Shown here piece by piece: positions 5,647-51,600 of a stretch of 64,000 bases of DNA. The stretch covers positions 99,095-163,094 of the forward strand of contig CAWFNG010000008.1 in the NCBI GenBank assembly GCA_963817135.1, given 5' to 3'. This stretch comes from an uncultured Alphaproteobacteria bacterium. GTDB taxonomy: Bacteria > Pseudomonadota > Alphaproteobacteria > Rhizobiales > Xanthobacteraceae. The notes beneath the pieces were generated by a model. It did no database searches. It worked only from the letters and a program-made list of their open reading frames with translations, and was not told the DNA's origin. The translations under genes and the position numbers were made by a program. Each line of letters opens with the position of its first letter. Positions within the stretch are counted from its first letter, which is position 1.

Positions 5647-6897
5647 TTACCGCGAAAACCGCAGCCAATCCAGCGGCGATCTGAACGTCTGCCGATAGGG
5701 GGATCGGCGACGCGGAACGGAATTGTGAGTTGCATCGGCCGTTTGCGTCACGCTGCTTTCAGAAGCCTGTCCTTCGGAACTGGGCTGCGCCGATGCGTCG
5801 GGCGCGGCCTCTGCGGGCTTCTTTATGGCGAGCAGCAGGTTCGACTCGTTCGGCCGCCAGCGGTAGCCGATGCCGAAATCGATGGAATGGGCATTCCTGA
5901 AGAGGGCGGCATAGTTCGCCTGGTACCTGCCGGGGAAGACCCCGATCGGGCCGAGATAGCGGCCGAACGGATGCAGGTCCCACTTCTTCGGGTCGAAGTA
6001 GCGCAGCGGGACGCCGGAATCGTCCTGCACCATGGCCGCGCTGTCGGCGACGAGGAAGTCCCGCACCTTGGTGAAGCCGCCGGAGTGCAGGAGATAGGAG
6101 GCACTCTTTATGAGGCTGTCCCCGGGGCCGAGCGACTCCAAAAATTTCAGGAAGTTGCTGTTCCTGACGCCGTCGTCGGCAAGGTTGGTGCTGAAGTAAT
6201 AGAGCGTCCGTTCCTCGCCGTCGCTGCCGGCGAACACGATTTTCACGCCGCGCGCCCCGCTCCCGCGGCCCCCATCGGTATCCGGTTGCACCGCGCCCTG
6301 TTCGTCAATCTTGACCAGAGAGGCCTCGCGCACGGTCTTCCCCGAGCGCGCCAGGAATACGTAGAGGATCGGCAGCGTGCCGTTGACCCGGCCGACGTGC
6401 AGGTCCGATCTCATCCGGTGGGTGATGAAGAACGTGTGCGACAGCAGCGTGCTGATCGAGGCATGCAGGTGGTAAAGGTTCGGCGCGATCGACCCGCGCA
6501 GCGTGGTGAGGTCGGGCACCGTGCCGACCGGCTCGAGACCGGCGAGCACATAGGTCTTGGCGTTCGGATAGAAGGCATTTGCATAAAGGAAGTCAGGGCC
6601 GCTGAACATGTAGAACATGGCCGGGCGCGACGCCGTGAGATTGCTCTTTGACCAGGCGCGAATCCGGGCGAGCTGGCCTTGGTCGAGGCGGCCGAAGGCG
6701 CCGTCGAAGCTGCGGGCATGCTGCTGCCAGCTGCCGTCCTTGGTCAGCGGCGCGAGCGGCAACTCGGCGTCAACCGGCATGCCGGCGAGGAACCGCGCGG
6801 TGTCATTTGGAGATGCGGTGTCGGCGGCATGCACCGGCCCCAGTGCCGAGAAAAACAGGCCTGCTGCGGCGGCGATGATCGTTCTGCGCTGAAACAT
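5647..6897 (-). CDS. conserved hypothetical exported protein
   Basis: Long ORF with a signal-like N-terminus MFQRRTIIAAAAGLFFSALGPVHA. It lies 10 nt downstream of the permease gene on the same strand. No family recognised. Confidence 0.55.
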   Translation of the reverse strand: MFQRRTIIAAAAGLFFSALGPVHAADTASPNDTARFLAGMPVDAELPLAPLTKDGSWQQHARSFDGAFGRLDQGQLARIRAWSKSNLTASRPAMFYMFSGPDFLYANAFYPNAKTYVLAGLEPVGTVPDLTTLRGSIAPNLYHLHASISTLLSHTFFITHRMRSDLHVGRVNGTLPILYVFLARSGKTVREASLVKIDEQGAVQPDTDGGRGSGARGVKIVFAGSDGEERTLYYFSTNLADDGVRNSNFLKFLESLGPGDSLIKSASYLLHSGGFTKVRDFLVADSAAMVQDDSGVPLRYFDPKKWDLHPFGRYLGPIGVFPGRYQANYAALFRNAHSIDFGIGYRWRPNESNLLLAIKKPAEAAPDASAQPSSEGQASESSVTQTADATHNSVPRRRSPYRQTFRSPLDWLRFSR

Positions 6898-6907
6898 GTG
6901 TGCGGAC

Positions 6908-8270
6908 TCACGTTGGCGTTGCAAGGCCTGGATTTCTCCGCGACCGTGACAGGTAGTAGACGGCGAGGCCTGACGCCATCATCAGCACGCCGATGAACGA
7001 CTGCACCGGACGCTGGGTCACGAGATAGTACATCATGAACGCTGTCACCGAGAGGAAGATGACCGGCGTCACGGGATATCCCCATGCGCGATAGGGCCGC
7101 GGCAAATCAGGGCGCGTGATGCGCAGCTTGATGACCCCCAGCACCGTGAGGAACGAGCAGGCTAAGAGGCTGAACTGGATGAAGTCGAGCACCGCCTCAA
7201 AGCTTTGGGTGAGGAGCATCAGCGTCGCAACAATCGGCCTGGAACAAGATCGCGGTGGTCGGCACGCCGGCCCACGATCGGCGGGCAAACATGCGCAGCA
7301 TCGGAATGTCCTCGCCCATCGTCATCGTTACCCGCGGACCGATCCACATCATGGCGCTGATCGACGAAACAAGGCCGACGCAGATCAGCGCGCCGACGAT
7401 GCGGCCGCCGAGATCGCCGAACACATGCTTGCCGGCAATAACGGCAATATCGAGTTGCCCGGCGAGCTGATTGATCGGCGTGCTGTAGAGAAAAAGCGCG
7501 TTCAGCGCGACATAGAGCACGATGACGATCGCTGTCCCGACCAGGAGCGAACGCGGCAGGCTCCGCTGCGGGTCGTGCATCTCGCCGGCAATGTAGGTCG
7601 CGGCATTCCAGCCCGAATACGAATACATCACGAAGACGAGGCTGATTGCGAAGGATGCGCTGATCACGTACGAGGCATCGGCAGAGGACGGGGCGAATGA
7701 GATGGGCTGCGGCGTTGCGAGCGCGAACCCCGCGACCAGAAATGCGAGGATCAGAGCCACCTTCAGAACGGTCCAGGCCATCTGGAACGCGCTGCTGTAG
7801 CGGAGGCCGCGCAGTCCAACGAGCGATACGATCCAGACGACGCAGAGGCCGAGCACCAGCGGCGGAACACCCGGAAGGATCGCCTTGCCGTATTGGCCGA
7901 ACGCCATGGCGGCGAGCGCCACCGGGGCGGCAAAACCGACCGTGGCCGACAGCCAGCCCGCCAGGAAGCCCAGGGCCGGATGGTACGTCTGCCGCAGGAA
8001 ATTGTACTCGCCGCTGGAGCGGGGAAACATCGCGGCGAGCTCGCCGTAGGAAAATACCCCGCACAGCGCGACGCCACCCCCGACCACCCACAGAAGAAGC
8101 AGCGAGAAGCCGGAGGGGATTCCCTGCACCTGGAATCCAAGGCTGGTGAACACGCCGACGCCGACCATGTCGGCTACCACAATGGCAGTCGCGGTCAGCA
8201 TGGAGACGGTCAGCCGGATTGGCGGAAGTCCCGCTAAATGCGCCGGACTCCCAACGTCGATAATAGCCAT
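6908..8270 (-). pseudogene. APC-family amino acid permease, frame broken once
   Basis: ORF 7197-8291 is polytopic (..SGEYNFLRQTYHP..) and ends ..GVPTTAILFQ. It continues as IVATLMLLTQSFEAVLDFIQFSL.. in ORF 6908-7288. One extra nt near 7240 accounts for the break. Start at 8270 (MAIIDVG) has GAAGGGG 4 nt upstream. Confidence 0.65.
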
Positions 8271-8490: not shown

Positions 8491-8652
8491 ACTGCATAGC
8501 TTTCCCCAGCCCCGCCATCCCGGCTCACAATACCGACATAATCTAATGTTTTCAGTACCGTGGGGCAGCTGGGGGAGTTCCGGAGAAAGGCGATCGGTGG
8601 TGTTTGCGGACTTGCCGCACACCCAGCGCGTCTGACTTGGAACTGTGTGGGG

Positions 8653-9834
8653 ATGGTATCTGCGGGATCGTCAGTCCCGAAAAGCAGCGTCACGAGTGAT
8701 TTCACGGGAGCGTGCGCGCCAAGCCTGTGGCGGCGCTGGGCGGCGATCTCGCCTGCGCTCGTCGCGCTGCCGTGTCTTCTTCTCCAGGGCTGTGGAAATT
8801 CAGAGCCCAAGACGCTCGCCAAAGCGGATGCAGCGATGCTGCTCTCCGGGTCTAGCACGCACGACGTGAGCCCCCGTGGCGTCGCGAGTGCCGACGCCGT
8901 GCAGACTGGGCCCGTGGATTCATTTGCCGACCGGTATGCCGCCGCCGACAGCTATGCTCCGAGATCCGCTCCGAAGATGGTCGTCGATCGCGTCGGAACG
9001 CTCCCGCCGGGCTCCTACAAGGTGGCCTCGCTGTCGCCGGATCTGCCCTTTGGCATGTCGGCCGTCAAGCAGGCGCACACGCATCTGATCGGCTTCGACA
9101 ACTCGGCCTTCCCGTCTCCCGGCAAGAGCTACAGCGACAACCGTGTTCTCGTCCACGTGCCCTCCGGGTTCGACGTGCGCAAACCGGGGGTCATCGTCGT
9201 ATTCTTCCACGGCCACGGCGCTACCCTCGAGCGCGACGTGCGCGACCGTCAGCTGCTGCCCAAGCAGATTTCCGAATCCGGGATCAATGCCGTGCTGGTC
9301 GCGCCGCAGCTTGCCTACGACGCCGCCGATTCCAGCGCCGGCAAGCTTGCCGAGCGCGGCGGCTTCAAGCGGTTCATGACGGAAGCGGCCGAGCATCTTG
9401 CCCGCATCTATGGGGATGCGCGCGCCACCCAGGCCTTCGCAAAGATGCCGGTGATTATTGTGGCCTATAGCGGCGGCTTCGTCTCCGCCGCCCACAGCCT
9501 GAGTGTCGGCGGTCTCGGCAAGCGCGTTCGCGGCGTGGTTCTGCTCGATGCCCTCTACGGGGAAATTGACAAGTACTCCTCGTGGATCGCCAAGAACCGC
9601 TCCGGCTTTTTCGTCAGCGCCTACACGGCGTATACCAAACGCCACGATGACGACCTCGCGAAAATCCTCCGCGACAAAGGCATCGCCGTCACCGACGAAC
9701 TCAATGGTTACCTGAAGCCGGGGACCGTTGCCTTCCTGCAAACCCCTGAAGGCGCCCGACACCGCGATTACGTCACGCTCGCCTGGACCGAGCACCCGGT
9801 GACCGACATCCTGCTGAGAATCCCGCGCCGCTGA
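8653..9834 (+). CDS. putative lipoprotein with alpha/beta-hydrolase-like core
   Basis: Lipobox LLLQGC. VIVVFFHGHG and an AYSGG nucleophile-elbow-like motif. Start codon uncertain (ORF open from 8560). Confidence 0.45.
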   Translation: MVSAGSSVPKSSVTSDFTGACAPSLWRRWAAISPALVALPCLLLQGCGNSEPKTLAKADAAMLLSGSSTHDVSPRGVASADAVQTGPVDSFADRYAAADSYAPRSAPKMVVDRVGTLPPGSYKVASLSPDLPFGMSAVKQAHTHLIGFDNSAFPSPGKSYSDNRVLVHVPSGFDVRKPGVIVVFFHGHGATLERDVRDRQLLPKQISESGINAVLVAPQLAYDAADSSAGKLAERGGFKRFMTEAAEHLARIYGDARATQAFAKMPVIIVAYSGGFVSAAHSLSVGGLGKRVRGVVLLDALYGEIDKYSSWIAKNRSGFFVSAYTAYTKRHDDDLAKILRDKGIAVTDELNGYLKPGTVAFLQTPEGARHRDYVTLAWTEHPVTDILLRIPRR

Positions 9835-24066: not shown

Positions 24067-24226
24067 CTAGTGCGGTGAATTTGAAGTTCCCTCATGACCG
24101 GCCGCAAGCTCGTTTAGGAACTTCAAAACCGCACTAGAAATCATAGAGTTGCTAGTGGTCCTTAATTCCGAAGTTCGCATCTGAACGTGCCGCGAGTGGT
24201 GGCGAACTTCGGAATCGGACCACTAG
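24067..24226. repeat. mosaic palindromic element, copy A (modules 1+2)
   Basis: CTAGTGCGGTGAATTTGAAGTTCC..GGAACTTCAAAACCGCACTAG (24067-24137), then CTAGTGGTCC..CCGAAGTTCGC..GCGAACTTCGGAATCGGACCACTAG (24152-24226). Near-identical to the copies at 25062 and 35705. Confidence 0.85.
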
Positions 24227-25061: not shown

Positions 25062-25229
25062 CTAGTGCGGTGAATTTGAAGTTCCTATCATAACTGGCCG
25101 CAAGCTCGTTTAGGAACTTCAAATTCAAAACCGCACTAGAAATCATAGAGTTGCTAGTGGTCCTTAGATTCCGAAGTTCGCATCTGAACGTGCCGCGAGT
25201 GGTGGCGAACTTCGGAATCGGACCACTAG
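25062..25229. repeat. mosaic palindromic element, copy B (modules 1+2)
   Basis: Same two CTAG-bounded hairpin modules as copy A, placed between the ssrA 3' end and sspB. Confidence 0.85.
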
Positions 25230-25239
25230 GCAGCTTTGC

Positions 25240-25635
25240 TCCATTATAGATATGGAAGTGGAGGCTTCTGTTGCCAGGTGCCTCCGAACCCCGCCTGAAG
25301 CTGCTAAGACCTCAGGACTTTATTTCGGTTTTCCGAACCGCATTACGCGGCCAGGGCCACCGGAGCATAGTTGTCGTTGGCAACTATGAGTTTGGCCCGA
25401 TATCGGTGGTACCATGCCGAGCAAAAGCACGCCCTTTACGCCCTCGTCGATCCTATTTCGCCCCCGTATCAGGATTCAGGCGACAGTAATCAGTAATCAG
25501 TAGGCCTGATCTGATTACTGATTTCTGGCTTCCTGACTCCTGACTGGTGGAGGCGCCGGGTACTGCCCCCGGGTCCGAAAGGTTTATTCCGACGGCCATT
25601 TATTGCCATAGCCGGCATATGCCGGCTCCTCTAAT
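25240..25635 (-). ncRNA. ssrA: tmRNA (ssrA), circularly permuted two-piece type
   Basis: On the minus strand the acceptor piece ends ..CCGGGGGCAGUACCCGGCGCCUCCACCA (CCA = complement 25545-25547). The coding piece starts GGGGGCGAAAUAGGAUCGACG at 25465. Its acceptor pairing includes G3-U70. Tag ORF GCC AAC GAC AAC TAT GCT CCG GTG GCC CTG GCC GCG TAA (complement 25343-25381) gives ANDNYAPVALAA. The outer ends are approximate. Confidence 0.85.
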
Positions 25636-25964
25636 ATAGCCCGACACGCGCAGCAAAAAAAGACTGCCGGCGCCGTCGCCGCGGTGCCCGGGCCCGCGGA
25701 TTCGTTCCGCGCAGAACGGCGCTGGCCATCGCGCCAGCCGGTGCTCAAATTAATGGCACGCGCTCCGAACGTTCGCGCTTTGCCGTAGCCGAAACGAAAT
25801 CCCTGTGCATATTTGTCGCAGTTGCATTAAGGCGCCCGCGCCTTACGGGAACCTTAACGCGTCGTACTTGCTTCCCGCCGCCTATGGGAATGTGGTACGG
25901 ATTACAGGCGTGCAGAACCGAGCGCTAGGATCGGCGCACAGCCTGCGGCTTTGCAGGAGGGAAC

Positions 25965-33883: not shown

Positions 33884-34783
33884 CTACTCAGTCACGAACT
33901 CCTCGCGCCGGTATCCTTGCGCATAGAGGAGCGCCGTGAGATCGCCGTAGTCCACACGCGCGGCCGCAGCCTGCGCCACTTTCGGCTTGGCATGGTAGGC
34001 CACTCCCAACCCTGCGGCGGCGATCATCGCAAGGTCATTGGCGCCGTCGCCGGCAACAAGCGTGTCGTCCGGCCGCAGATTCAATTGCAAGGTTAATTCC
34101 TTCAGGGTCGCAAGCTTGCCGTCGCGAGCAAAAACCGGCTCGGCTACGATTCCGGTCAGGACGCCATGGCCGTCGACGACGAGCGTGTTGGCGCGACTCT
34201 CATCGAAGCCGAGCATCCCCGCAATCCGATCAGTGAATAGAGTGAAACCGCCCGTGACCAGACACGCATATGCGCCGTAATGGCGCATGGTGGTGACCAG
34301 AGCGAGGGCACCCGGGTTGAGGCGAATCCGGCTGCGGATCACTTCCTCGACCACGGATACTGGCAGGCCCTTGAGCAGGGCCACGCGCGCTCGCAGCGCC
34401 GGCTCGAACTCCACCTCGCCGCGCATCGCGCGCTCGGTAATGGCGGCGACCTCCTGTTTCACTCCGGCGTAGTCAGCCAGCTCATCGATGCATTCCTGGC
34501 CGATCATGGTGGAATCCATGTCGCTGAGGAGAAGCTTCTTGCGCCGGCCGGTCGTGCCCTGCACCACAATGTCGATCGGCGCCCCGGCGAGCGCCTCGCG
34601 GATGCGTTTGCCAGTTGCGCGACTTTCCGACTGCTGCGCGCTAAAGGGAATGTCGACGGCAATGCCGACATCGAGCCAGATCGGTTGTTCGCTGCGAGCG
34701 AGCGCGCCGCGCGCGCGTCCGATTGCACGATCGTCGATGGCAGGCGTTGCTGGATTCGAGATCAGAGTTGCGACGAAGGACAT
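33884..34783 (-). CDS. serB: phosphoserine phosphatase
   Basis: HAD motifs ..[11 protein letters not shown].. and ..[12 protein letters not shown].., with an ACT-like N-terminus. Confidence 0.9.
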
Positions 34784-34786
34784 GCA

Positions 34787-35716
34787 ATGGCCGCTCAGGC
34801 AGCATCACAGCGGGCGCTGCTTATTGCAGGGGCCACCGCCAGCGGCAAGTCGGCAGTGGCGCTTGCGCTTGCGGAAAAGCTCGGCGCAACCATCATCAAT
34901 GCGGATTCGATGCAGGTCTACCGGGATCTGCGCATTATCACGGCGCGACCGACGCCGGAGGAGGAGGGGCGTGTTCCCCATCGTCTGTATGGTCACGTTG
35001 ACGCCGCCGAGAATTATTCGGTCGGCCGCTGGTGTGTCGATGCCAGCGCAGCCATCGCAGAGGCCATGCAGGCGGGGTCGCTGCCGATCGTGGTCGGCGG
35101 CACCGGGCTTTATTTCAAGATCCTCACGCAGGGGCTTGCCCGCATTCCGCCGATCCCGTCTGAATTGCGCGCGCGTATTCGCAGACGCCTGCAGACCGAA
35201 GGCGTTGCTGCGCTCTACGCCGACTTGAGCGCGCGGGATGCGCACACGGCGCGGCGCCTGATGCCGGCTGACCGCGCGCGTATTGTGCGTGCACTCGAAG
35301 TCATGTTGGCAACCGGCCGGTCGCTGGCGGATTGGCAGCGCGAGGGCATGCAGCCCGTCTTCGCTGCCCATAACGCGCTGCGAATATTCCTCGCGATGGA
35401 TCGCGATGAACTCTATCGCCGCATCAATGCCCGCTTCGATGCCATGCTCGCAGCCGGGGCGCTGGAGGAGGTACGGGGGCTTTATGCCCGCGATCTTGAT
35501 CCGGCGCTTCCCGCCATGAAGGCACATGGGGTGCCTTGGCTGATTGCGCATTTCCGCGGCGAAATGGATTTGGCGGCAGCGGCCGAGGCGGCAAAGCGCG
35601 ACACCCGCCGTTACACCAAGCGCCAAGCCACCTGGTTCCGGCATCAACTGCCGGATTGGACCTGGGTCGCTCCCGAAAGCGCAGTCGGCGAGATCATGCG
35701 GGCACTAGTGCGGTGA
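34787..35716 (+). CDS. miaA: tRNA dimethylallyltransferase
   Basis: ATG at 34787 with GAAGGA upstream. [45 protein letters not shown]. The last codons (LVR) and the stop lie in repeat copy D. Confidence 0.9.
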
Positions 35717-36032
35717 ATTTGAAGTTCCTATCATAACTGGCCGCAAGCTCGTTTAGGAACTTCAAATTCAAAACCGCACTAGAAATCATAGAGTTGCTAG
35801 TGGTCCTTAAATTCCGAAGTTCGCATCTGAACGTGCCGCGAGTGGTGGCGAACTTCGGAATCGGACCACTAGTGCCCCGCTTCCGAAGTTCGTGATACAT
35901 TGCGGCACCCTCCGATACGAACTTCGGAAGCAAAGGGGCACTAGCAACTATAATCCTAGTGCCGCTTTTCGATTTGAAGTTCCTTCACGAGCTTGCTGCA
36001 ACCGCTGTAGGAACTTCAAATCGGCGGCACTG
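35705..36032. repeat. mosaic palindromic element, copy D (four modules; second-order palindrome)
   Basis: Modules at 35705-35782, 35797-35872, 35869-35944 and 35956-36032. Each is a CTAGTG..CACTAG hairpin with a GAAGTTC(C/G) core. Module 4 is an inverted, diverged module 1, and module 3 is a variant of module 2. Confidence 0.85.
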
Positions 36033-36865
36033 GAACGCTGACGCGGCTTCCAACGCCATGCGCCGGCAGCCGCCGCGAGGAGGCCCGCTGCAAGCACCCA
36101 CCAAGCAGGGCGGATTTCCAGGTCGAAATCGAGTTGCGCGAGCAGGATCATGCGGCCGTCGACGCCGCTCGTGATCAGGTAGATGGTTGCTTCCGCCGCA
36201 GCGGTTGCGGCCGCGACCGTGCACGCCAGCAGCACGAGGTGATAGGGGGTCATCTCGCCGTTCCGCCGGAGCAGCACGCGGTAGAGCAGCAGCCACAGCA
36301 GAAACCCCGTCATCAATACCGGCTGATAGATGTTGAGCTTGGATTGCATGAAGAAGTGCACTGCGGCGAGCGGGGCAATGGCGTAGACCAGGCGGTGCAG
36401 CCTTTTCCAGCGCGCCCCGCCAAGCCGGCGGATCGCGGCATCGGTTGAAGTCGCGGCGAGCGCGATCAATCCCGTCAAAGCGAGCGCGCCGATCACGAGA
36501 TAAATCCGGCGCACGATCTCGCTGGCCACCTTGAACAGGTCGAAATGTTGATCGACCACGTAGAGCGATAGGTGAAGCACGGCATAACCTGCCGCAGCAA
36601 CGCCCAACGTGCGGCGGGTAAGGACAAGGCGCGGGTAGTTGAGGATACGTTGCGCCGGCGTGACCAGGAGCGTCACCAGGAGCAGACGGAACGCCCAGTC
36701 GCCGGCTTGGTGAATTGCCTCGGTCACCGGGCGAGCGCCAAGGGCGCCGGTTGCGGCCTGGTACGCGATCCAGATTGCCGGCAGCACTGCCGCTGCGAAG
36801 GCGGCAATCTTTATCGGGGACCAGTGTCCCGACTGTTCGCGGAGAAATCGCATGACGAATGGCAT
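35948..36865 (-). CDS. ferric-reductase-like transmembrane protein (MsrQ/YedZ-related)
   Basis: Polytopic with conserved His in TM segments (..AVLHLSLYV.., ..LAAVHFFMQ..). The C-terminal ~26 aa (..SAADLKFLQRLQQAREGTSNRKAALGL) are encoded by repeat module 4. No msrP partner is adjacent. Confidence 0.55.
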   Translation of the reverse strand: MPFVMRFLREQSGHWSPIKIAAFAAAVLPAIWIAYQAATGALGARPVTEAIHQAGDWAFRLLLVTLLVTPAQRILNYPRLVLTRRTLGVAAAGYAVLHLSLYVVDQHFDLFKVASEIVRRIYLVIGALALTGLIALAATSTDAAIRRLGGARWKRLHRLVYAIAPLAAVHFFMQSKLNIYQPVLMTGFLLWLLLYRVLLRRNGEMTPYHLVLLACTVAAATAAAEATIYLITSGVDGRMILLAQLDFDLEIRPAWWVLAAGLLAAAAGAWRWKPRQRSSAADLKFLQRLQQAREGTSNRKAALGL

Positions 36866-37005
36866 ACCGCCTTGTCAGATCACTTCTAATTAAATCAATC
36901 GTGTGATTTCGCCGTAGCCCTGAGTTCATCTCTTATGAAATCTCGGCGCCACTGTCCCGGATTGAGCGAAGACGCCCAATCCGGGCTACATTCATACGTT
37001 TTTGC

Positions 37006-37184
37006 TTGACGCCGCGGCCTCGCATCCCCTATAAGCGCCCGCAAGGAAATGACCAAATAGGCCTGCAATGCGTAATTTTATTACTCGAACTCGTAACCGT
37101 AGGCAGGCGCATCGCCGCCGGTGGCTAGCCCATCGGCAAATGCGGCGGTGCGCAGAAAGGCCCTTGCGGGCCTTTTTGATTTTG
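37006..37184 (+). promoter_or_regulatory. putative ilvIH promoter and leader/attenuator
   Basis: TTGACG (37006-37011), an 18-nt spacer, then TATAAG (37030-37035). A Val/Ile/Leu-rich codon run (GTA ATT TTA TTA CTC GAA CTC GTA ACC GTA) spans 37072-37101. A stem pairs 37108-37121 with 37141-37153. Terminator AAAGGCCC-ttgc-GGGCCTTT plus T-run lies at 37156-37184. Confidence 0.4.
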
Positions 37185-37214
37185 CGGGGCTGAGGAACCT
37201 AATAGGAGACAATA

Positions 37215-43498: not shown

Positions 43499-45199
43499 AT
43501 GTCGATCAGCGCGCTGTCTCCGGTAGCTCGGCTTCGATCACGCGATGTTGGCTACGCGCTCGGCGTAGCGCTTTTCGCCGTCCTGCATCTTGCCGCGCTC
43601 GGCATATTGCTGTTCACCGAGTACGATTTTGCGGCGCAAGCGGCTTTTCTCCTTGCCTGGGTTTTCGTCAACTGCTGCTGGCTGATCTTACTTAAGCGTC
43701 CACTGGTGTCGGGCGCGCTTTCGCTTGCGCTTGCCGTCACGCTGATCGCGCTGTCGCATTTCAAGTACGGCGTCATGATGATGACGGTGACGTTTGTCGA
43801 TGTGATGCTGATCGATGCCTCGACATTCTCGTTCCTTTTGCGCGCCACACCGGGCCTCTCGGTAAAGCTGGCGGCAGGCCTCGTCATCGCGATTCCATTG
43901 ATGATCCTGCTATGGCGGCTGGAGCCGTTTCTAGTGCGCCGCGGCCGTGCGGCAGCGGTTGGCGTTTTCTCCCTGGTTGCTCTCGCCGGATTGTCACTCG
44001 CGCTCCCGCTCGAACACGAAGATGAATTCCGGCTACGTCAGTACGTATCGAAGTTCGTACGCTCGGCAATTGTTGCTGCTGTCGAGCTCACCACGCACGG
44101 CGTGTTGGAAGCCGACGCCGCCGCTTCCTCGCGATTGAATGTCGCAACCAGTCCGACCTGCCCGCCGGCGCACAAGCTGCCGCACATCATCATGGTATTC
44201 GACGAATCGAGCTTCGATGCGAGCGTGCTGCCGAATGTCGTGCTGCCCGCACACTACCGGGATCGTTTCCGTTCTTCCGACGGCAGGATACGTTCCTTCG
44301 TAGTCGAAGGCGCCGGCGGCCCAAGCTGGTTCACCGAATACAACGTCCTGGCGGGGTTGTCGGTACGCTCGTACGGCCGCTTTGCCGGATCCGTGACCCG
44401 ACTTGCCGCCGGCCACGTCAAGCGCGGGCTGCCCTTTGCGCTGCGCAATTGCGGATACCGCACCTACAGCTTGTATTCCTGGTACGGAGCTTTCGCCGGT
44501 GCCCGCGGATTTCATACTTCGACCGGCATTGAGCACTTTCTCGATGCGCGGCAGCTGCACACCGGCCCTGCCGACACGGACAGCTTCTACTACAATCAGG
44601 CGCTGCGGGTTCTCGCTGAGAAACACGACGGCGAGCCGGTTTTCGTTTTCGTCTATCTCGCCCTCAATCACTTTCCCTGGAATTACCGTTATCGCCCCGA
44701 CCTCTTGACCGGGTGGAAAAATCCGGGCAACCCGTTCGAGGTCGACGAATATCTGCGCCGGCAGGAAATCAGCGCGCGCGATTATGCCGAATTCAAACTC
44801 AATCTCGCGCGCGAGTTTCCCGGCCAGCCATTCCTGCTGGTGCGCTTCGGCGATCACCAGCCGCTATTCGCCAAGCACCTTCTTGAGCCAGCACTTGCGC
44901 CGTCGCAGGTTGCGCAGCGGATTGCGCAGCATGACCCGCGCTATTTCACCACCTACTACGCATTGGAGGGCGTAAACTTTAAACCGGTCGAGCTTTCTTC
45001 CGCGCTCGAAAGGCTGGACGCTCCACATTTGCCGGTGGTAGTGCTGGAAGCGGCGGGGTTGCCGCTCGACGCTGCCTTCGCGGAGCAGAAAAGCATCCTT
45101 AACCGCTGTCGCGGGTTGTTTTATTTCTGCGCCGACGGCGCGGAAGCGCGCCGGTTCAATCGGCTGCTGATCGATGCCGGGTTGATCGAAGGGCTTTAA
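43499..45199 (+). CDS. membrane-anchored sulfatase-like / LTA-synthase-family transferase
   Basis: About five N-terminal TM helices, then an alkaline-phosphatase-superfamily-like domain (HIIMVFDESSFD .. RFGDHQP). Confidence 0.5.
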   Translation: MSISALSPVARLRSRDVGYALGVALFAVLHLAALGILLFTEYDFAAQAAFLLAWVFVNCCWLILLKRPLVSGALSLALAVTLIALSHFKYGVMMMTVTFVDVMLIDASTFSFLLRATPGLSVKLAAGLVIAIPLMILLWRLEPFLVRRGRAAAVGVFSLVALAGLSLALPLEHEDEFRLRQYVSKFVRSAIVAAVELTTHGVLEADAAASSRLNVATSPTCPPAHKLPHIIMVFDESSFDASVLPNVVLPAHYRDRFRSSDGRIRSFVVEGAGGPSWFTEYNVLAGLSVRSYGRFAGSVTRLAAGHVKRGLPFALRNCGYRTYSLYSWYGAFAGARGFHTSTGIEHFLDARQLHTGPADTDSFYYNQALRVLAEKHDGEPVFVFVYLALNHFPWNYRYRPDLLTGWKNPGNPFEVDEYLRRQEISARDYAEFKLNLAREFPGQPFLLVRFGDHQPLFAKHLLEPALAPSQVAQRIAQHDPRYFTTYYALEGVNFKPVELSSALERLDAPHLPVVVLEAAGLPLDAAFAEQKSILNRCRGLFYFCADGAEARRFNRLLIDAGLIEGL

Positions 45200-45208
45200 T
45201 CCTTCACC

Positions 45209-45925
45209 ATGAACGAGATCACGGTTGTGCCGGTCGAGCGGCTCGATCTTGTTTTTGCGCCGCGACCATGGCCCTTTGCCGAGGAGCGGCGCGCCGAGAT
45301 TGCTGCACATTTTGCCGCGCTGCGGGAGGCCAATCCGACGCTTTGGAACGGACGTGCGCTTCTGCTGCACCAATATTCCATCACGACGTCGGTGTTCCAG
45401 GGATCGTATCTCGAAACCGATTATGCGAGCCTGCTGGCATGGCGGCACTGGGGATTTCCCGACGATCGGATGAAGAACTGCTTTGCCATGGCAGCGCTTC
45501 GCGCAAGCGACGGCGGGTTTCTCCTGGGCGTCATGGCCGCGCATACCGCCAATGCCGGCCTTGTCTATTTCCCGGCAGGGGTGCCCGATCCATGCGACGT
45601 TGTCGGCACACGCGTCGATCTTGCACGCAACGTCCTGCGCGAGATCGGCGAGGAGACCGGCCTGTGCGCCGGGGATTTCCAGGCCGACGACGGATGGACG
45701 ACGGTTCTGGCAGGTCCTCGCATTGCGCAAATCAAGCTGTGCCATTTGCGCGAGAGCGCGCAAGCGGTGCGCGGGCGCATCGTTGCCTACCTGAAGACCC
45801 AGCCGCAGCCGGAATTGTCGGATCTGCGCATCGTGCGCAGCCCCTCGGATTTCGAATCCTGCATGCCGGCCTTCGTTACCGGATATCTCACGCATTTCTG
45901 GAATCGAACGCAGGGCACAGCATGA
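45209..45925 (+). CDS. NUDIX-like hydrolase
   Basis: A partial Nudix box ..NVLREIGEETGL.. is present. The upstream G-x5-E part is not canonical. Confidence 0.5.
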   Translation: MNEITVVPVERLDLVFAPRPWPFAEERRAEIAAHFAALREANPTLWNGRALLLHQYSITTSVFQGSYLETDYASLLAWRHWGFPDDRMKNCFAMAALRASDGGFLLGVMAAHTANAGLVYFPAGVPDPCDVVGTRVDLARNVLREIGEETGLCAGDFQADDGWTTVLAGPRIAQIKLCHLRESAQAVRGRIVAYLKTQPQPELSDLRIVRSPSDFESCMPAFVTGYLTHFWNRTQGTA

Positions 45926-48661: not shown

Positions 48662-51600
48662 ATGGCTCTCTACGACGCCTTCGTCTCCTATAGCTATGCC
48701 AACGACAAATCCGTCGCGTCGGCGCTGCAAACGACGGTGCAGAAGCTCGGCAAGCTCTGGTACCGGAGGAGGGCGCTGCGCCTTTTCGCGACGACACCAG
48801 CCTCGCCGCCGCGCCGCAGCTTTGGCCGACGATCGAGCGGGCGCTCGGAAGAGTCGCTCCACTTCATATTGCTCGCCTCTCCGCAAGCCGCCGCCTCGAA
48901 ATGGGTCAACAAGGAGGTTGCGTACTGGCTGGATCATAATTCCATCGACACACTGCTCATCGGCGTCACCCATGGCGAGCTGTTCTGGGACGACACGGCC
49001 GGCGACTTCGCCGCCCGGCGGAATCTGCCGCTGCCCTCCGTGCTTGCTGGCCGGTTTCCGAGCGAGCCGAGTTGGGTCGACCTGCGCGCCTACCGGGATG
49101 GTGCGGACAAGCGCGATGCGAAGCTCACCGAGCTTGCGGCCGACTTCGCCGCTGCCATCCGTGGTATTCCGAAAGAGGATTTGCTGTCACAGGAAGTTCG
49201 CCAGCAGCGGCGCGCCCTCACCCTGGCCTGGTCGGCGGTGGGCCTCTTGCTCGTTCTCGCCGCCGGCGCCACCGGCGCGGGCGTCCTCGCCTATCGCGCC
49301 AGCAGCAGGCGGTGTGTGCCGAGCAGCAAGCCCTCGCCGAGCGCGATACCGCGACCCGCAACTTCAAGCTCGCGAAAGCGACTGCCGACAGCCTGGTGCG
49401 CGACATCGCGATCGATCTGCGCGATGAGCCGGGAATGCGATGAACTCGATTTGGAAAATTCTGGAAACCGCGCGAACGACCTACGAGACGCTGGCGGATG
49501 CGGCGCCGGACGATGTCTCCTTGCAGCAAAGCCGCGCCGGGATGCTGCATGAATTTGGCAGCACGTATGAAAGGCTCGGTGACCTGGGCCAAGCGCTCGC
49601 GACCTATCGCGAGGATCTTGCCATCAGCACGGCAGCTGGCCGCGCGCGACAGCAACCCCCAGCGCAAGCTCGGCATTGCGTCGGCCAACCTCGCGATCGG
49701 CGATGTCCTCAGGGAGCAGGGGCAATTCGATGCAGCAGTTGCAGCCTATCGCGCGGGGCTGGCGACTAGAGCGGGCATTGGCCGAGCCGGATCGAAGCAG
49801 CGCGGCTTGGCAGCGCTACGTGGCGTGGTTCACGGAGCGCATTGGCGACGTGCTCCGGAAGCAGGGCCGGCTGGATGAAGCGCTCGCTGCATTTCGCGAC
49901 TACCTCACGATGCAAGGCCAGGCCGCTCGCAATGAGAGCGACGACGTTTCGCAGGATTGATGATAGCCTACGACCGAATAGGCAGCGTGTTGGAAACGCA
50001 GGGCAAGCTCGATGAAGCGTTGGGGACCTATCGGGAGAGCCTCGCCATCAACGAGCGCATGGCTGCGCTGAAGGCAGCGGCATGGGGGCGCAGCACGGCC
50101 CGCCGTCGCCCACGGGCAGATCGGGGACGTGCTGCGTACCAAGGGTCGCCTCGATGAGGCGCTCCAGGCTTATCGGGACGCTTTTGCGATCGACGAGCGC
50201 GTCGCCGCCGCCGATCCGAGCAACATTGTTCGACAGGGCCAACTCGAACACTGGTCGATCAGCATCGGCGACGTGCTGCGCGAACAAGGCAAGCTCGGCG
50301 ACGCCCTGAAAGCCTACCGTGCAAGTCTTGCCGTAAGGGAGCGCCTCGCTGCTGCCGATCCCAGCAACATGGAGTGGCAGCGCAACCTCATCATCGCTCA
50401 CAATCGGATCGGCAACCTGCTGGGGGATAAAAATCGGCAGGACGAGGCGATTGCCGCCTATCGCAAGAGCCTCGAATTGGCGCAGAGTCTTGCCGCCCGC
50501 GATCCCGATCATGCGCAATGGCAGGACGACCTTTTCGTTGGCTACGAAAATCTGGGCCGTCAATTGGCGCACGTCGATCGCAATGAGGAGGCGCTCGAAG
50601 CCTACCGCAACAGCCTCGCCATCGCAGAAAAGCTCGTCGCCAAGTCGGGCGGAAATCCCAGGTGGCAGTTGAAACTCTCGGGCGCCTATTATGGGATCGC
50701 CAACCTGCTGGTGGATGATCCCACCAGGCACGAGGAGGCGTTGGCAACCTATCAGAAGAGCCTCGCAATTCGCCAGCAACTCGTCGCGGCCGATCCGAGC
50801 AACACGGAATGGCAGAACTACCTGGGCGTAAACTACTCGGGCCTCGCCAAGATGCTGGTCGACGCTGGCGCGCGCGAGGAGGGGCTTGAGAACTATCGCG
50901 CCGCGGCGGGCATCTGGGAGCGTCTTGTTGCGCTCGACGGCAGCAATGTCCAATGGCAAACGCGGCTGCGCTGGATGTACAACGATATCGCCGACATCCT
51001 GAAAGGCCGCGGTGAGCTTGACGCTGCACTCCAACTCTACCGCCAAGGCTTTGCCATCGCAGCGCGCCTCGCCGCCGCCGATCCGGACAATATCGAGAGG
51101 GGGCGCGCTCTCGCGCTCGCGCACGAAAACATCGGCCACGTGCTCGAGAAGGAGGGCAAGCACGACGACGCCTTTGCGGCCTACGGCGAGAGCCTGGCGA
51201 TCCGCGAGCGTCTCGCCGCGGCTGACCCGGGCAGCACGCAAAGGCAGCGCGAGCTCTCTGTGGTGAACGAGCGCCTGGGCGATATCTATCTAAAACAAGG
51301 CAAGCTCGACGAAGCACTCAGGCAGTACCGTACCAGTCTCGATCGCATGAGTGCTCTGCGTGATGCCGGCCCCTTCAATGCTGATCTGCAGCGTTTCACC
51401 GCCGTCACCCTGACCAATATCGCCAAAATCCTCGGTCGCCAGGGCAGGCTCGACGACGCGGTCAAAGCCGACCGCGACAGCACCGAGCTGCGCACGCGCC
51501 TGGCAGCGAGCAATTCAAACAACGCAAAGTGGCAGCGTGAGCTTGCAGTGTCCCACTACAATGAGGGGGACATCCTCAAGGCGCAGGGTAAGCTCGATGA

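Follow-up and report, generated by a model that had tools for sequence, protein, structure and literature searches.

What kind of sequence can come to lie between two convergent genes and code for the ends of both is the question raised by positions 35705-36032 of a 64,000-nucleotide stretch of DNA (the window) from an uncultured alphaproteobacterium of the Xanthobacteraceae (GenBank assembly GCA_963817135.1, contig CAWFNG010000008.1), where four hairpin modules separate miaA from an msrQ-like gene. We consider it probable that this array arose by two insertions of a palindromic DNA element that is mobile but not autonomous and that occurs widely in the Alphaproteobacteria. On the best reading of its type the element belongs to the bacterial mosaic palindromic repeats, its ends being like those of the transposable elements known as MITEs (miniature inverted-repeat) and its arrays like those of the bacterial interspersed mosaic elements (BIMEs).

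The four modules, of 76-78 nt each and bounded by CTAGTG and CACTAG, fill the 328 bp of the array, and all elements that the original prediction had described for them are present in the sequence. M1 (35705-35782, + strand) is an A-type hairpin with a right-arm bulge, running CTAGTGCGG...CCGCACTAG, which a covariance model of the family scores at 80.4 bits on the + strand and 54.7 bits on the - strand, and which folds as DNA with -26.5 kcal/mol (z -9.6). It is followed by linker 1 (35783-35796, +; AAATCATAGAGTTG), which agrees with the integration host factor (IHF) consensus WATCAANNNNTTR at 8 of its 9 defined positions, and by M2 (35797-35872, -; 82.8 bits on that strand), a B-type hairpin with a left-arm bulge and a single GANTC at 35858. 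The CTAG at 35869-35872, with which M2 ends, is common to M3 (35869-35944, +; 89.6 bits), a B-type module of a second subfamily, from which linker 2 (35945-35955, -; CAACTATAATC), a shortened, reverse-complement form of the linker that holds the msrQ stop, leads to M4 (35956-36032, -; 70.5 bits), an A-type module of the second subfamily that ends on the right in CACTGG and codes most of the new MsrQ tail. Every module of the window forms one long hairpin, with folding energies as DNA between -23 and -28 kcal/mol and z between -7 and -10, and the RNA fold of the whole array reaches -192 kcal/mol (z = -17). The core GAAGTTCS-N15-35-SGAACTTC is found 8 times in the window as against an expectation of 0.00 from shuffles. 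M1 and the reverse complement of M4 are 78% identical, as are M2 and the reverse complement of M3; the relationship proposed between M3 and M2 is thereby upheld, while M3 would be better called an inverted variant than simply a variant. The M1-M2 and M3-M4 halves, taken as reverse complements, are 77% identical and fall into separate subfamilies, both of which are also present in other genomes (that of M3-M4, for example, at the loci L013, L051 and L098). CTAG is strongly under-represented in the window (38 observed, 92 expected), and since 16 of the 38 lie inside elements and 22 outside repeats, the array and its kin do concentrate this rare tetranucleotide, as had been proposed.

The consequences for the two genes are apparent from the relatives L121-L127 (contigs of three MsrQ homologues), which share with the window the gene order hflKC, DUF2065, htrA, serB-like, miaA, msrQ, carry no module at any position on these contigs, and have, in L121, L123 and L126, convergent miaA and msrQ genes that overlap by 73-85 bp (85, 73 and 73 bp). 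Aligned with them, the window contains an extra block of 325 bp (35707-36031), the removal of which leaves ATG CGG GCA CTG GAA CGC TGA, collinear with CGG CGC GCG CTC GGG CGC TGA of the relatives. The miaA gene (IPP transferase; 34781-35716, +, start approximate) takes its last three codons, L-V-R, and its stop from the first 12 nt of M1 (CTA GTG CGG TGA), exactly as predicted, and MiaA retains a near-native end after the insertion, RALVR* as compared to RALGR* in the relatives. The msrQ-like gene (Ferric_reduct domain; 35948-36865, -) had its tail replaced by an element-encoded one: MsrQ homologues align to only ~90% of the window protein, which departs from its orthologues after RQRSSA, into ADLKFLQRLQQAREGTSNRKAALGL, with loss of a conserved 19-residue tail. 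The last ~25-27 residues are coded by M4 and part of linker 2, within which the stop lies (TAG, minus strand, 35948-35950), in line with the figure of about 26 residues given originally. A relic of the native tail coding sequence persists at 35644-35704 (-), antisense within the miaA 3' end and separated from msrQ by the array, which has split the convergent genes and removed their overlap. Orthologues lacking the palindromes do not, then, have the same C-termini, as the MiaA and MsrQ ends both differ. Two more genes end in the element: the DUF2065 gene of the window reads LIWLVR* where relatives have LIW(L/F/I)(V/M)RG*, and on Roseibium plasmids a RefSeq short-chain dehydrogenase/reductase (SDR) gene stops at the TAG contained in the first CTAG of the element. 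With stops or tails supplied to miaA, DUF2065, msrQ and the SDR gene, the anticipated location at gene 3' ends is borne out.

In the relatives the MsrQ tail is coded antisense to the C-terminal region of MiaA, and the tail may be conserved on account of miaA no less than for the sake of MsrQ function. The mechanically called miaA open reading frame (ORF; 34280-35716, +) has 478 aa, extends ~167 codons upstream of the likely start and overlaps the opposite-strand serB-like HAD gene; MiaA of the relatives is 308-313 aa long.

Elsewhere in the window the covariance model located exactly eight full modules over the 64 kb, namely the four of the array and those of two A-linker-B dimers, and no others. 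The dimer at 25062-25229 (+), 27 nt past the 3' end of the transfer-messenger RNA (tmRNA) gene, is 99.4% identical to M1-linker-M2 within unrelated flanks, and that at 24067-24226 (+), between sspB and the RHH_4 gene, is 93.5% identical to M1-M2. The copy at 32106-~32150 (+), which gives the DUF2065 gene its L-V-R-stop end, is a truncated A-type module consisting of the left arm and loop only; the three further copies originally listed (24067, 25062 and 32106) thus all exist, the last of them incomplete. The A module of the 24067 dimer (24067-24137) measures 71 nt, ~7 nt below the copies at 25062 and 35705, and is thus in decay; as the RHH_4 ATG follows 19 nt downstream, this copy would fall in the RHH_4 5' leader.

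The element is far from confined to this window. A scan of one genome per species with the pattern CTAGTG-N8-16-GAAGTTCS-N15-35-SGAACTTC returned at least 120 loci, among them loci of Bradyrhizobium, Xanthobacteraceae, Hyphomicrobium, Caulobacteraceae, Hyphomonadaceae, Parvularculaceae, Paramagnetospirillum, Magnetospira, Rhodopila, Hoeflea, Mesorhizobium and Brucella daejeonensis, and the family is therefore widespread across many orders of Alphaproteobacteria. A search with nhmmer over ~1.1 Mb of the collected loci yielded 269 modules, 222 of them full length, and plasmid BLAST recovered a full dimer also on Roseibium/Labrenzia plasmids; with hundreds of copies elsewhere, the notion of an element unique to the window is contradicted. 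The alignment A4 of 93 oriented modules gives the consensus CTAGTGTCCCGATTCCGAAGTTCGC-(loop ~ATCATTnTGCGGCACCCTCGTTTG)-CGAACTTCGGAATCnAAGGGACACTAG, a layout of ~76 nt in which CTAGTG is followed by a variable stem, a bulge, the GAAGTTC stem, a ~25-nt loop (~CATnnTGCGGCAnnCTCGTTT), the complement and the CACTAG end. The bulge, of 3-4 nt and A-rich, is found in a constant arm and therefore gives each module an orientation; window modules accordingly score 80-90 bits in one orientation as compared to ~54 in the other.

Pairing of the arms is nearly complete, with 97.9% of cells paired; shuffles give 84%, and sliding the partners gives 25-40%. Two-sided changes in arm pairs amount to 292 cells (74 in shuffles), while one-sided (G:U) changes are nearly nil at 0-3 per pair, a frequency similar to that of A:C mismatches. 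As the search pattern had fixed the inner box, modules were re-collected with nhmmer and the 80 modules lying outside the pattern were analysed separately; in these the inner box co-varies (GAAGTCC/GGACTTC, GAAATTC/GAATTTC, GACATTC/GAATGTC) and CTAGTG/CACTAG are kept at 90% or more. Because the arms co-vary in Watson-Crick fashion with almost no G:U, this strict covariation without wobble points to a constraint at the level of DNA and not of RNA. GANTC occurs mid-stem in 37% of modules, and with that proportion an association with the methyltransferase site of CcrM was rejected as a defining trait. At Rfam gathering thresholds the tmRNA is the sole match in the window, and at E<=10 the region 35600-36150 gave only sub-threshold matches to miRNA-precursor hairpins; no description of the family is found in Rfam or in the searchable literature.

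The unit in which the modules occur is usually a polar dimer, composed of an A-type module, a 13-14-nt linker and an inverted B-type module: dimers make up 102 of the 154 arrays, beside 47 single modules, 2 triples and 3 quadruples. Neighbouring modules less than 40 nt apart have the bulge orientation (+)(-) in all but one pair, and paired modules are separated by a gap of 11-16 nt (mode 13). The linker consensus is CTAG-AATCA(T/A)NNNNTTG-CTAG (written out, CTAG-AATCATAGAGTTG-CTAG), and at least 8 of the 9 IHF consensus positions are matched in 48% of 105 linkers, as compared to 0.2% when 21-mers are drawn at random from these loci and 1.6% when the linkers are shuffled. It is this consensus match that suggests that the linker may bind IHF, as the E. 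coli BIME-1/RIP and Neisseria Correia elements do. In 30 of the 38 dimers that could be oriented, a B-type module (GAAGTTCG) adjoins the TTG, and the module adjoining the ATCA is more often A-type. Arrays of three or more modules are without exception (+-)(+-), with gaps of 13-15 / -4 / 13-15, and longer arrays are consequently dimers abutted at one common CTAG. The loci L142 (1959-2278) and L029 (198-528) each hold four modules as direct tandem dimers in the order A B A B, and the window array has the head-to-head order A B B' A'. The 'palindrome of palindromes' that the array had been taken for is therefore not a designed unit; it is two abutted A-linker-B dimers, and its global symmetry is incidental, because the halves are 77% identical and of different subfamilies.

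That the dimers are mobile is indicated by sites occupied in some genomes and empty in others. In L130, which has the closest SspB relative (88% identical), both of the sites flanking sspB in the window are empty, the 25062 site is empty in 8 relatives, and the four window sites are all without the element in the closest relatives; the expectation of a structured repeat present or absent between relatives is thus confirmed at the miaA/msrQ, sspB/RHH_4 and ssrA/sspB sites. L147 has a dimer of a different subfamily 50 nt after its tmRNA gene, as compared to 27 nt in the window, which indicates independent insertions into one tmRNA-downstream intergenic region. The convergent RHH_4/asmA site carries two dimers in L142 and one in L132 (3679-3844); in the window only 15 nt separate these genes, and they hold no element. 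Empty RHH_4/asmA sites read GCG-CTAA-CGCCCGAAC (L148), GCG-CTAA-TTTCCGAAC (L170) and CGC-TTAA-CGACCGAAC (L137), and filled ones read GCG-CTAG[dimer]CTAG-CG/TG-CCCGAAC (L048, L144, L132). Because the empty sites carry one CTAA or TTAA and the filled ones CTAG...CTAG, the target is a YTAR/CTAG-like tetranucleotide, of which an empty site holds one copy and a filled site one to either side of the element. Over the sites compared, the single tetranucleotide of empty sites is YTAR or CTNG. A logo of the flanks of 270 array ends agrees with this target, with C at 93% and T at 88% before AGTG, A at 87% and G at 95% after CACT, and only weak G/C outside the CTAG. An earlier idea that the native site resembles the element end (GCT(C/G)G at 3 of 4 sites) was set aside, as outside CTAG the logo shows weak G only. 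The M4 end CACTGG belongs to an 8% class, relatives having CTCG or CTTG there, and it may be a mutated end or the result of insertion into CTGG.

From these data a course of events may be proposed in which the element integrates at CTAG-like sites and its ends regenerate CTAG, so that a resident copy would become a new target and arrays would grow; the regeneration of CTAG at each end of an inserted copy would account for the shared-CTAG junctions. At the miaA/msrQ overlap an older subfamily-2 dimer, M3-M4, with its worn right end CACTGG, would have entered first, and a young subfamily-1 dimer, M1-M2, would then have entered the left CTAG of M3-M4. The hairpin would be constrained as DNA, either as terminal inverted repeats bound by a transposase or as a hairpin in single-stranded or cruciform form. 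The order of the insertions, the IHF binding and the nature of the enzyme are parts of this scheme that we infer. As regards the enzyme, a DDE transposase that targets TA/YTAR (IS630/Tc1- or IS5-like) has something approaching an even chance, because of the TA/YTAR target and the symmetrical ends; a single-strand enzyme of the HUH type, akin to the REP-associated tyrosine transposases (RAYTs) of repetitive extragenic palindromic (REP) sequences, is put forward more tentatively, because of the selected hairpin, one-sided bulge, BIME-like alternation and class-wide persistence; and an enzyme of some other kind seems unlikely.

Several points weigh against this account of mobile insertion. One identical string results whether TA is duplicated, 4 bp are duplicated, or AGTG...CACT enters CT^AG with no duplication at all, duplication being inseparable from terminal redundancy because the element begins (CTA)GTG and ends CAC(TAG), and in relatives the insertion point of several empty sites lacks a TA (CGCCA|GCC, CTCG, CTGG). 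No autonomous partner came to light: no insertion sequence with matching ends was found in the 1.1 Mb of loci or in the window, the IS630-type motif SPxLNPIE is absent from all frames of those loci, the ~45 window ORFs include no transposase, RAYT or integrase domain, and no gene is bracketed by modules in the loci examined. Ordinary MITEs seldom persist through a whole class or keep a conserved loop and a conserved one-sided bulge, traits that fit a selected hairpin better, and the argument for IHF binding is one of consensus matching. Unpaired arms 0.1-4 kb apart were considered as a possible autonomous element and rejected, as they are separate modules with housekeeping genes between them; plasmid BLAST gave few chromosomal-type copies and no insertion-sequence ends.

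The alternative that survives best, possible though in our view doubtful, is a REP/REPIN-like one, in which a domesticated enzyme encoded by a single-copy gene, of the HUH (RAYT-like) or another hairpin-specific kind and inherited vertically across the Alphaproteobacteria, would act on the hairpins as single-stranded DNA, A and B representing left and right ends with cleavage after CT. Such a system would accommodate the Watson-Crick complementarity held over many diverged subfamilies, the orientation given by the one-sided bulge, the alternating orientation with two kinds of junction as in BIMEs, the polar A-linker-B dimer and the class-wide distribution, and the miaA and DUF2065 junctions fit an insertion of AGTG...CACT after the CT of CT^GG with no extra mutation needed. 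TnpA-REP of E. coli reportedly cleaves at CT dinucleotides adjoining REPs. What this alternative does not predict is the constrained downstream flank, A after CACT in 87% of ends, which is not expected of HUH insertion 3' of a target; nor did a RAYT-like gene turn up in the window or adjoining modules. The ends themselves are also at odds with it, CTAGTG and CACTAG being both palindromic and paired in the stem, whereas known REPs, of 20-40 nt, have a one-sided unpaired GTAG/CGTC tag (PMC3733652). Moreover, the Y1 transposases of Bradyrhizobium, R. palustris and Caulobacter are unlinked to CGTC repeats, and REP-associated ones are flanked by GTAG REPs (PMC3733652). A more far-reaching form, improbable as it stands, would have an ancient, vertically persistent hairpin-repeat system in most alphaproteobacterial orders, kept by a dedicated hairpin-specific enzyme (a RAYT-like HUH or other recombinase) together with IHF, the A and B hairpins forming the left and right ends and CTAG being the site of cleavage and the target. 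If true, this would constitute a second long-term association of the REPIN/RAYT type, independent of the gammaproteobacterial ones and akin in design to Bru-RS, CIR and RIME elements.

It is less likely again that the primary role of the hairpins lies at the level of RNA, as bidirectional terminators, 3'-end mRNA stabilisers or processing sites for RNase III/E at gene ends, the terminator and stabiliser roles being those originally proposed; REP, ERIC and Correia elements are precedents. The hairpins are indeed very stable and sit at 3' ends or in convergent gaps (miaA/msrQ, RHH_4/asmA, SDR/thioesterase, downstream of ssrA), but the region 35400-36400 has no T-tract or intrinsic-terminator signature on either strand, and G:U pairs, which an RNA would tolerate, are essentially nil and no commoner than A:C. 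Dimers also occur in either polarity relative to adjacent genes, the element is missing from each of the four window sites in the closest relatives, and no Rfam family matches. The same region, 35400-36400, has no sigma-70 promoter signature. An effect as terminator or insulator on convergent transcription is possible as a by-product of the insertion of mobile DNA.

Folded tyrosine-recombinase sites like attC or the FLP recognition target (FRT), with two boxes in a hairpin and an extrahelical bulge marking the strand, are highly improbable, since the duplex boxes CTAGTG/CACTAG and GAAGTTC/GAACTTC 10-14 nt apart, the one-sided bulge and the presence of GAAGTTCCTAT (e.g. window 35721-35731), which we take to be the first 11 nt of the yeast FLP recognition arm, are set against the lack of cassette genes between modules and of an integrase in the window, an inner box that co-varies and is not fixed, a box order (CTAG outside, GAAGTTC inside) the reverse of that in FRT, and no match to the attC R/L boxes (GTTRRRY). 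With box order and spacing wrong, the FRT resemblance of GAAGTTCCTAT was judged to be coincidental. The A-type end TAGTGTGG..GAAGTTCCTAT likewise resembles CAGTGTGGGAAAGTTCTATAGG, presumably the Tc3 terminal repeat, which may be coincidence.

Among known repeat families, the E. coli REP/BIME, and especially BIME-1 (RIP/RIB), is closest in design to the mobile element proposed here. BIMEs have imperfect palindromes with a one-sided irregularity, alternating orientation, defined linkers, arrays of variable length and intergenic or 3'-end sites, and one of their linker types contains an IHF-consensus site, all of which is mirrored in the present family. The modules described here are 75-78 nt as compared to ~35 nt for the REPs of BIMEs, have no sequence similarity to them and no RAYT gene among the window ORFs or between neighbouring modules of the loci, carry CTAG at both ends within the stem where REPs have a one-sided GTAG, and use as their second junction type a shared CTAG, in effect a linker of zero length. 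MITEs such as RUP of Streptococcus pneumoniae and Correia/NEMIS of Neisseria are of ~100-170 bp, are non-coding and have long terminal inverted repeats that give one hairpin; the present family shows a module of 76 nt, a dimer of ~165 nt, arms 97.9% complementary, presence/absence polymorphism and near-identical dispersed copies. RUP and Correia elements further resemble it in a TA-centred target, insertion at gene ends and the addition of stop codons or tails (PMC2229807), and Correia elements in an internal IHF site. Unlike them, the family spans a class and not a genus, forms polar two-hairpin dimers, has a target that is nearly always a full CTAG, and has yielded no autonomous insertion sequence with matching ends.

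The alphaproteobacterial repeats deserve separate mention. Bru-RS and CIR elements share with the family two hairpin arms joined by a short linker, TA/CTAG termini and conservation between genera, and Bru-RS copies read TAGAGCG...CGCTCTAG, some of them with a GANTC as here. Identity with Bru-RS1/Bru-RS2, suspected from the IS711/YTAR link, was rejected because the real sequences are unrelated: the family files (supplement of PMC2267715), with elements of 103-106 bp, contain no GAAGTTC/GAACTTC and one CACTAG only. CIR1-4 of Caulobacter/Brucella (Chen & Shapiro 2003) are described as being of ~110 bp with a conserved GANTC at the terminal loop (PMC2229807). Here the dimer has ~165 bp and GANTC lies mid-stem in a minority of modules, and the family is set apart from CIR1-4 by description and not by sequence; it may equal one CIR class. 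The GTAG/CGTC REPs of Bradyrhizobium (PMC3733652) were rejected as having another size and another tag, and the QMITE2 relatives in Bradyrhizobium are GTAG REPs and not the present family. Since it has no Rfam match and is neither Bru-RS nor a GTAG/CGTC REP, the original prediction was right that the sequence is not a named family, among those that could be compared. RIME1 and RIME2 of Rhizobium (Osteras 1995, cited in PMC1273637) are reported to be mosaic intergenic elements of 108-109 bp with two large palindromes, and to be restricted to Rhizobiaceae and absent from Bradyrhizobium. By description they resemble the present family as mosaic intergenic elements of the Rhizobiales with two large palindromes. 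The Rickettsia palindromic elements (RPEs) are also palindromic repeats inside coding sequence that give peptide segments, and translation of the B-type consensus leaves two frames open through the module on the + strand; RPEs are in-frame internal insertions of unrelated sequence, while in both cases with a recognisable gene here (msrQ and the prediction P0253) the module provides a C-terminal tail.

This coding capacity has left its mark on protein databases. The 79-aa ORF across M3-M1 (35694-35933, -) has 292 homologous clusters at E<=1e-3 among 1.84 billion representative proteins, and the best-scoring of these are mostly predictions of 40-200 aa. The prediction P0121 is 100% identical to the ORF over 68 aa, several longer predictions end in the module-coded tail ...SGPIPKFASARVTFRCELRNLRTTSNFMILVRF, and P0253 joins an ATP-binding cassette (ABC) substrate-binding domain to such a tail. 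The family thus regularly burdens gene predictions with spurious ORFs and C-terminal tails. A test of whether long ORFs run into element edges was dropped, since in these GC-rich loci some long ORF already covers 79% of randomly chosen positions.

If the reading of the array as two insertions of a mobile element holds, it defines a repeat family spanning much of the Alphaproteobacteria, for which an alignment, a covariance model, an architecture of dimers and a candidate site for IHF are at hand. It would also offer a clean natural experiment, in which an insertion separated two convergent genes whose ends share 73-85 bp in relatives and swapped a conserved protein tail, and would explain a source of annotation noise, the 292 clusters of predicted proteins with a module-derived peptide. 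The Watson-Crick covariation and the one-sided bulge raise the question of which enzyme recognises the hairpins. The biology of the window itself is ordinary, that of mobile palindromic DNA tolerated at gene 3' ends.

Some further features of the window may be recorded. A DUF2239 gene lies between ilvI and msrQ in L126 and L127; the window has only ~350 bp there (36866-37214), from which the gene appears to be missing. Five ORFs of 238-566 aa (5647-6924, 8560-9834, 43499-45199, 45209-45925 and 48662-49552) have no Pfam match at E<=1e-5. The tmRNA gene next to the 25062 dimer is of the two-piece (permuted) alphaproteobacterial kind (25257-25665, -; alpha_tmRNA, 306 bits), and its intervening segment contains, at ~25470-25540, a palindromic run of CAGTAATCAG-like repeats.

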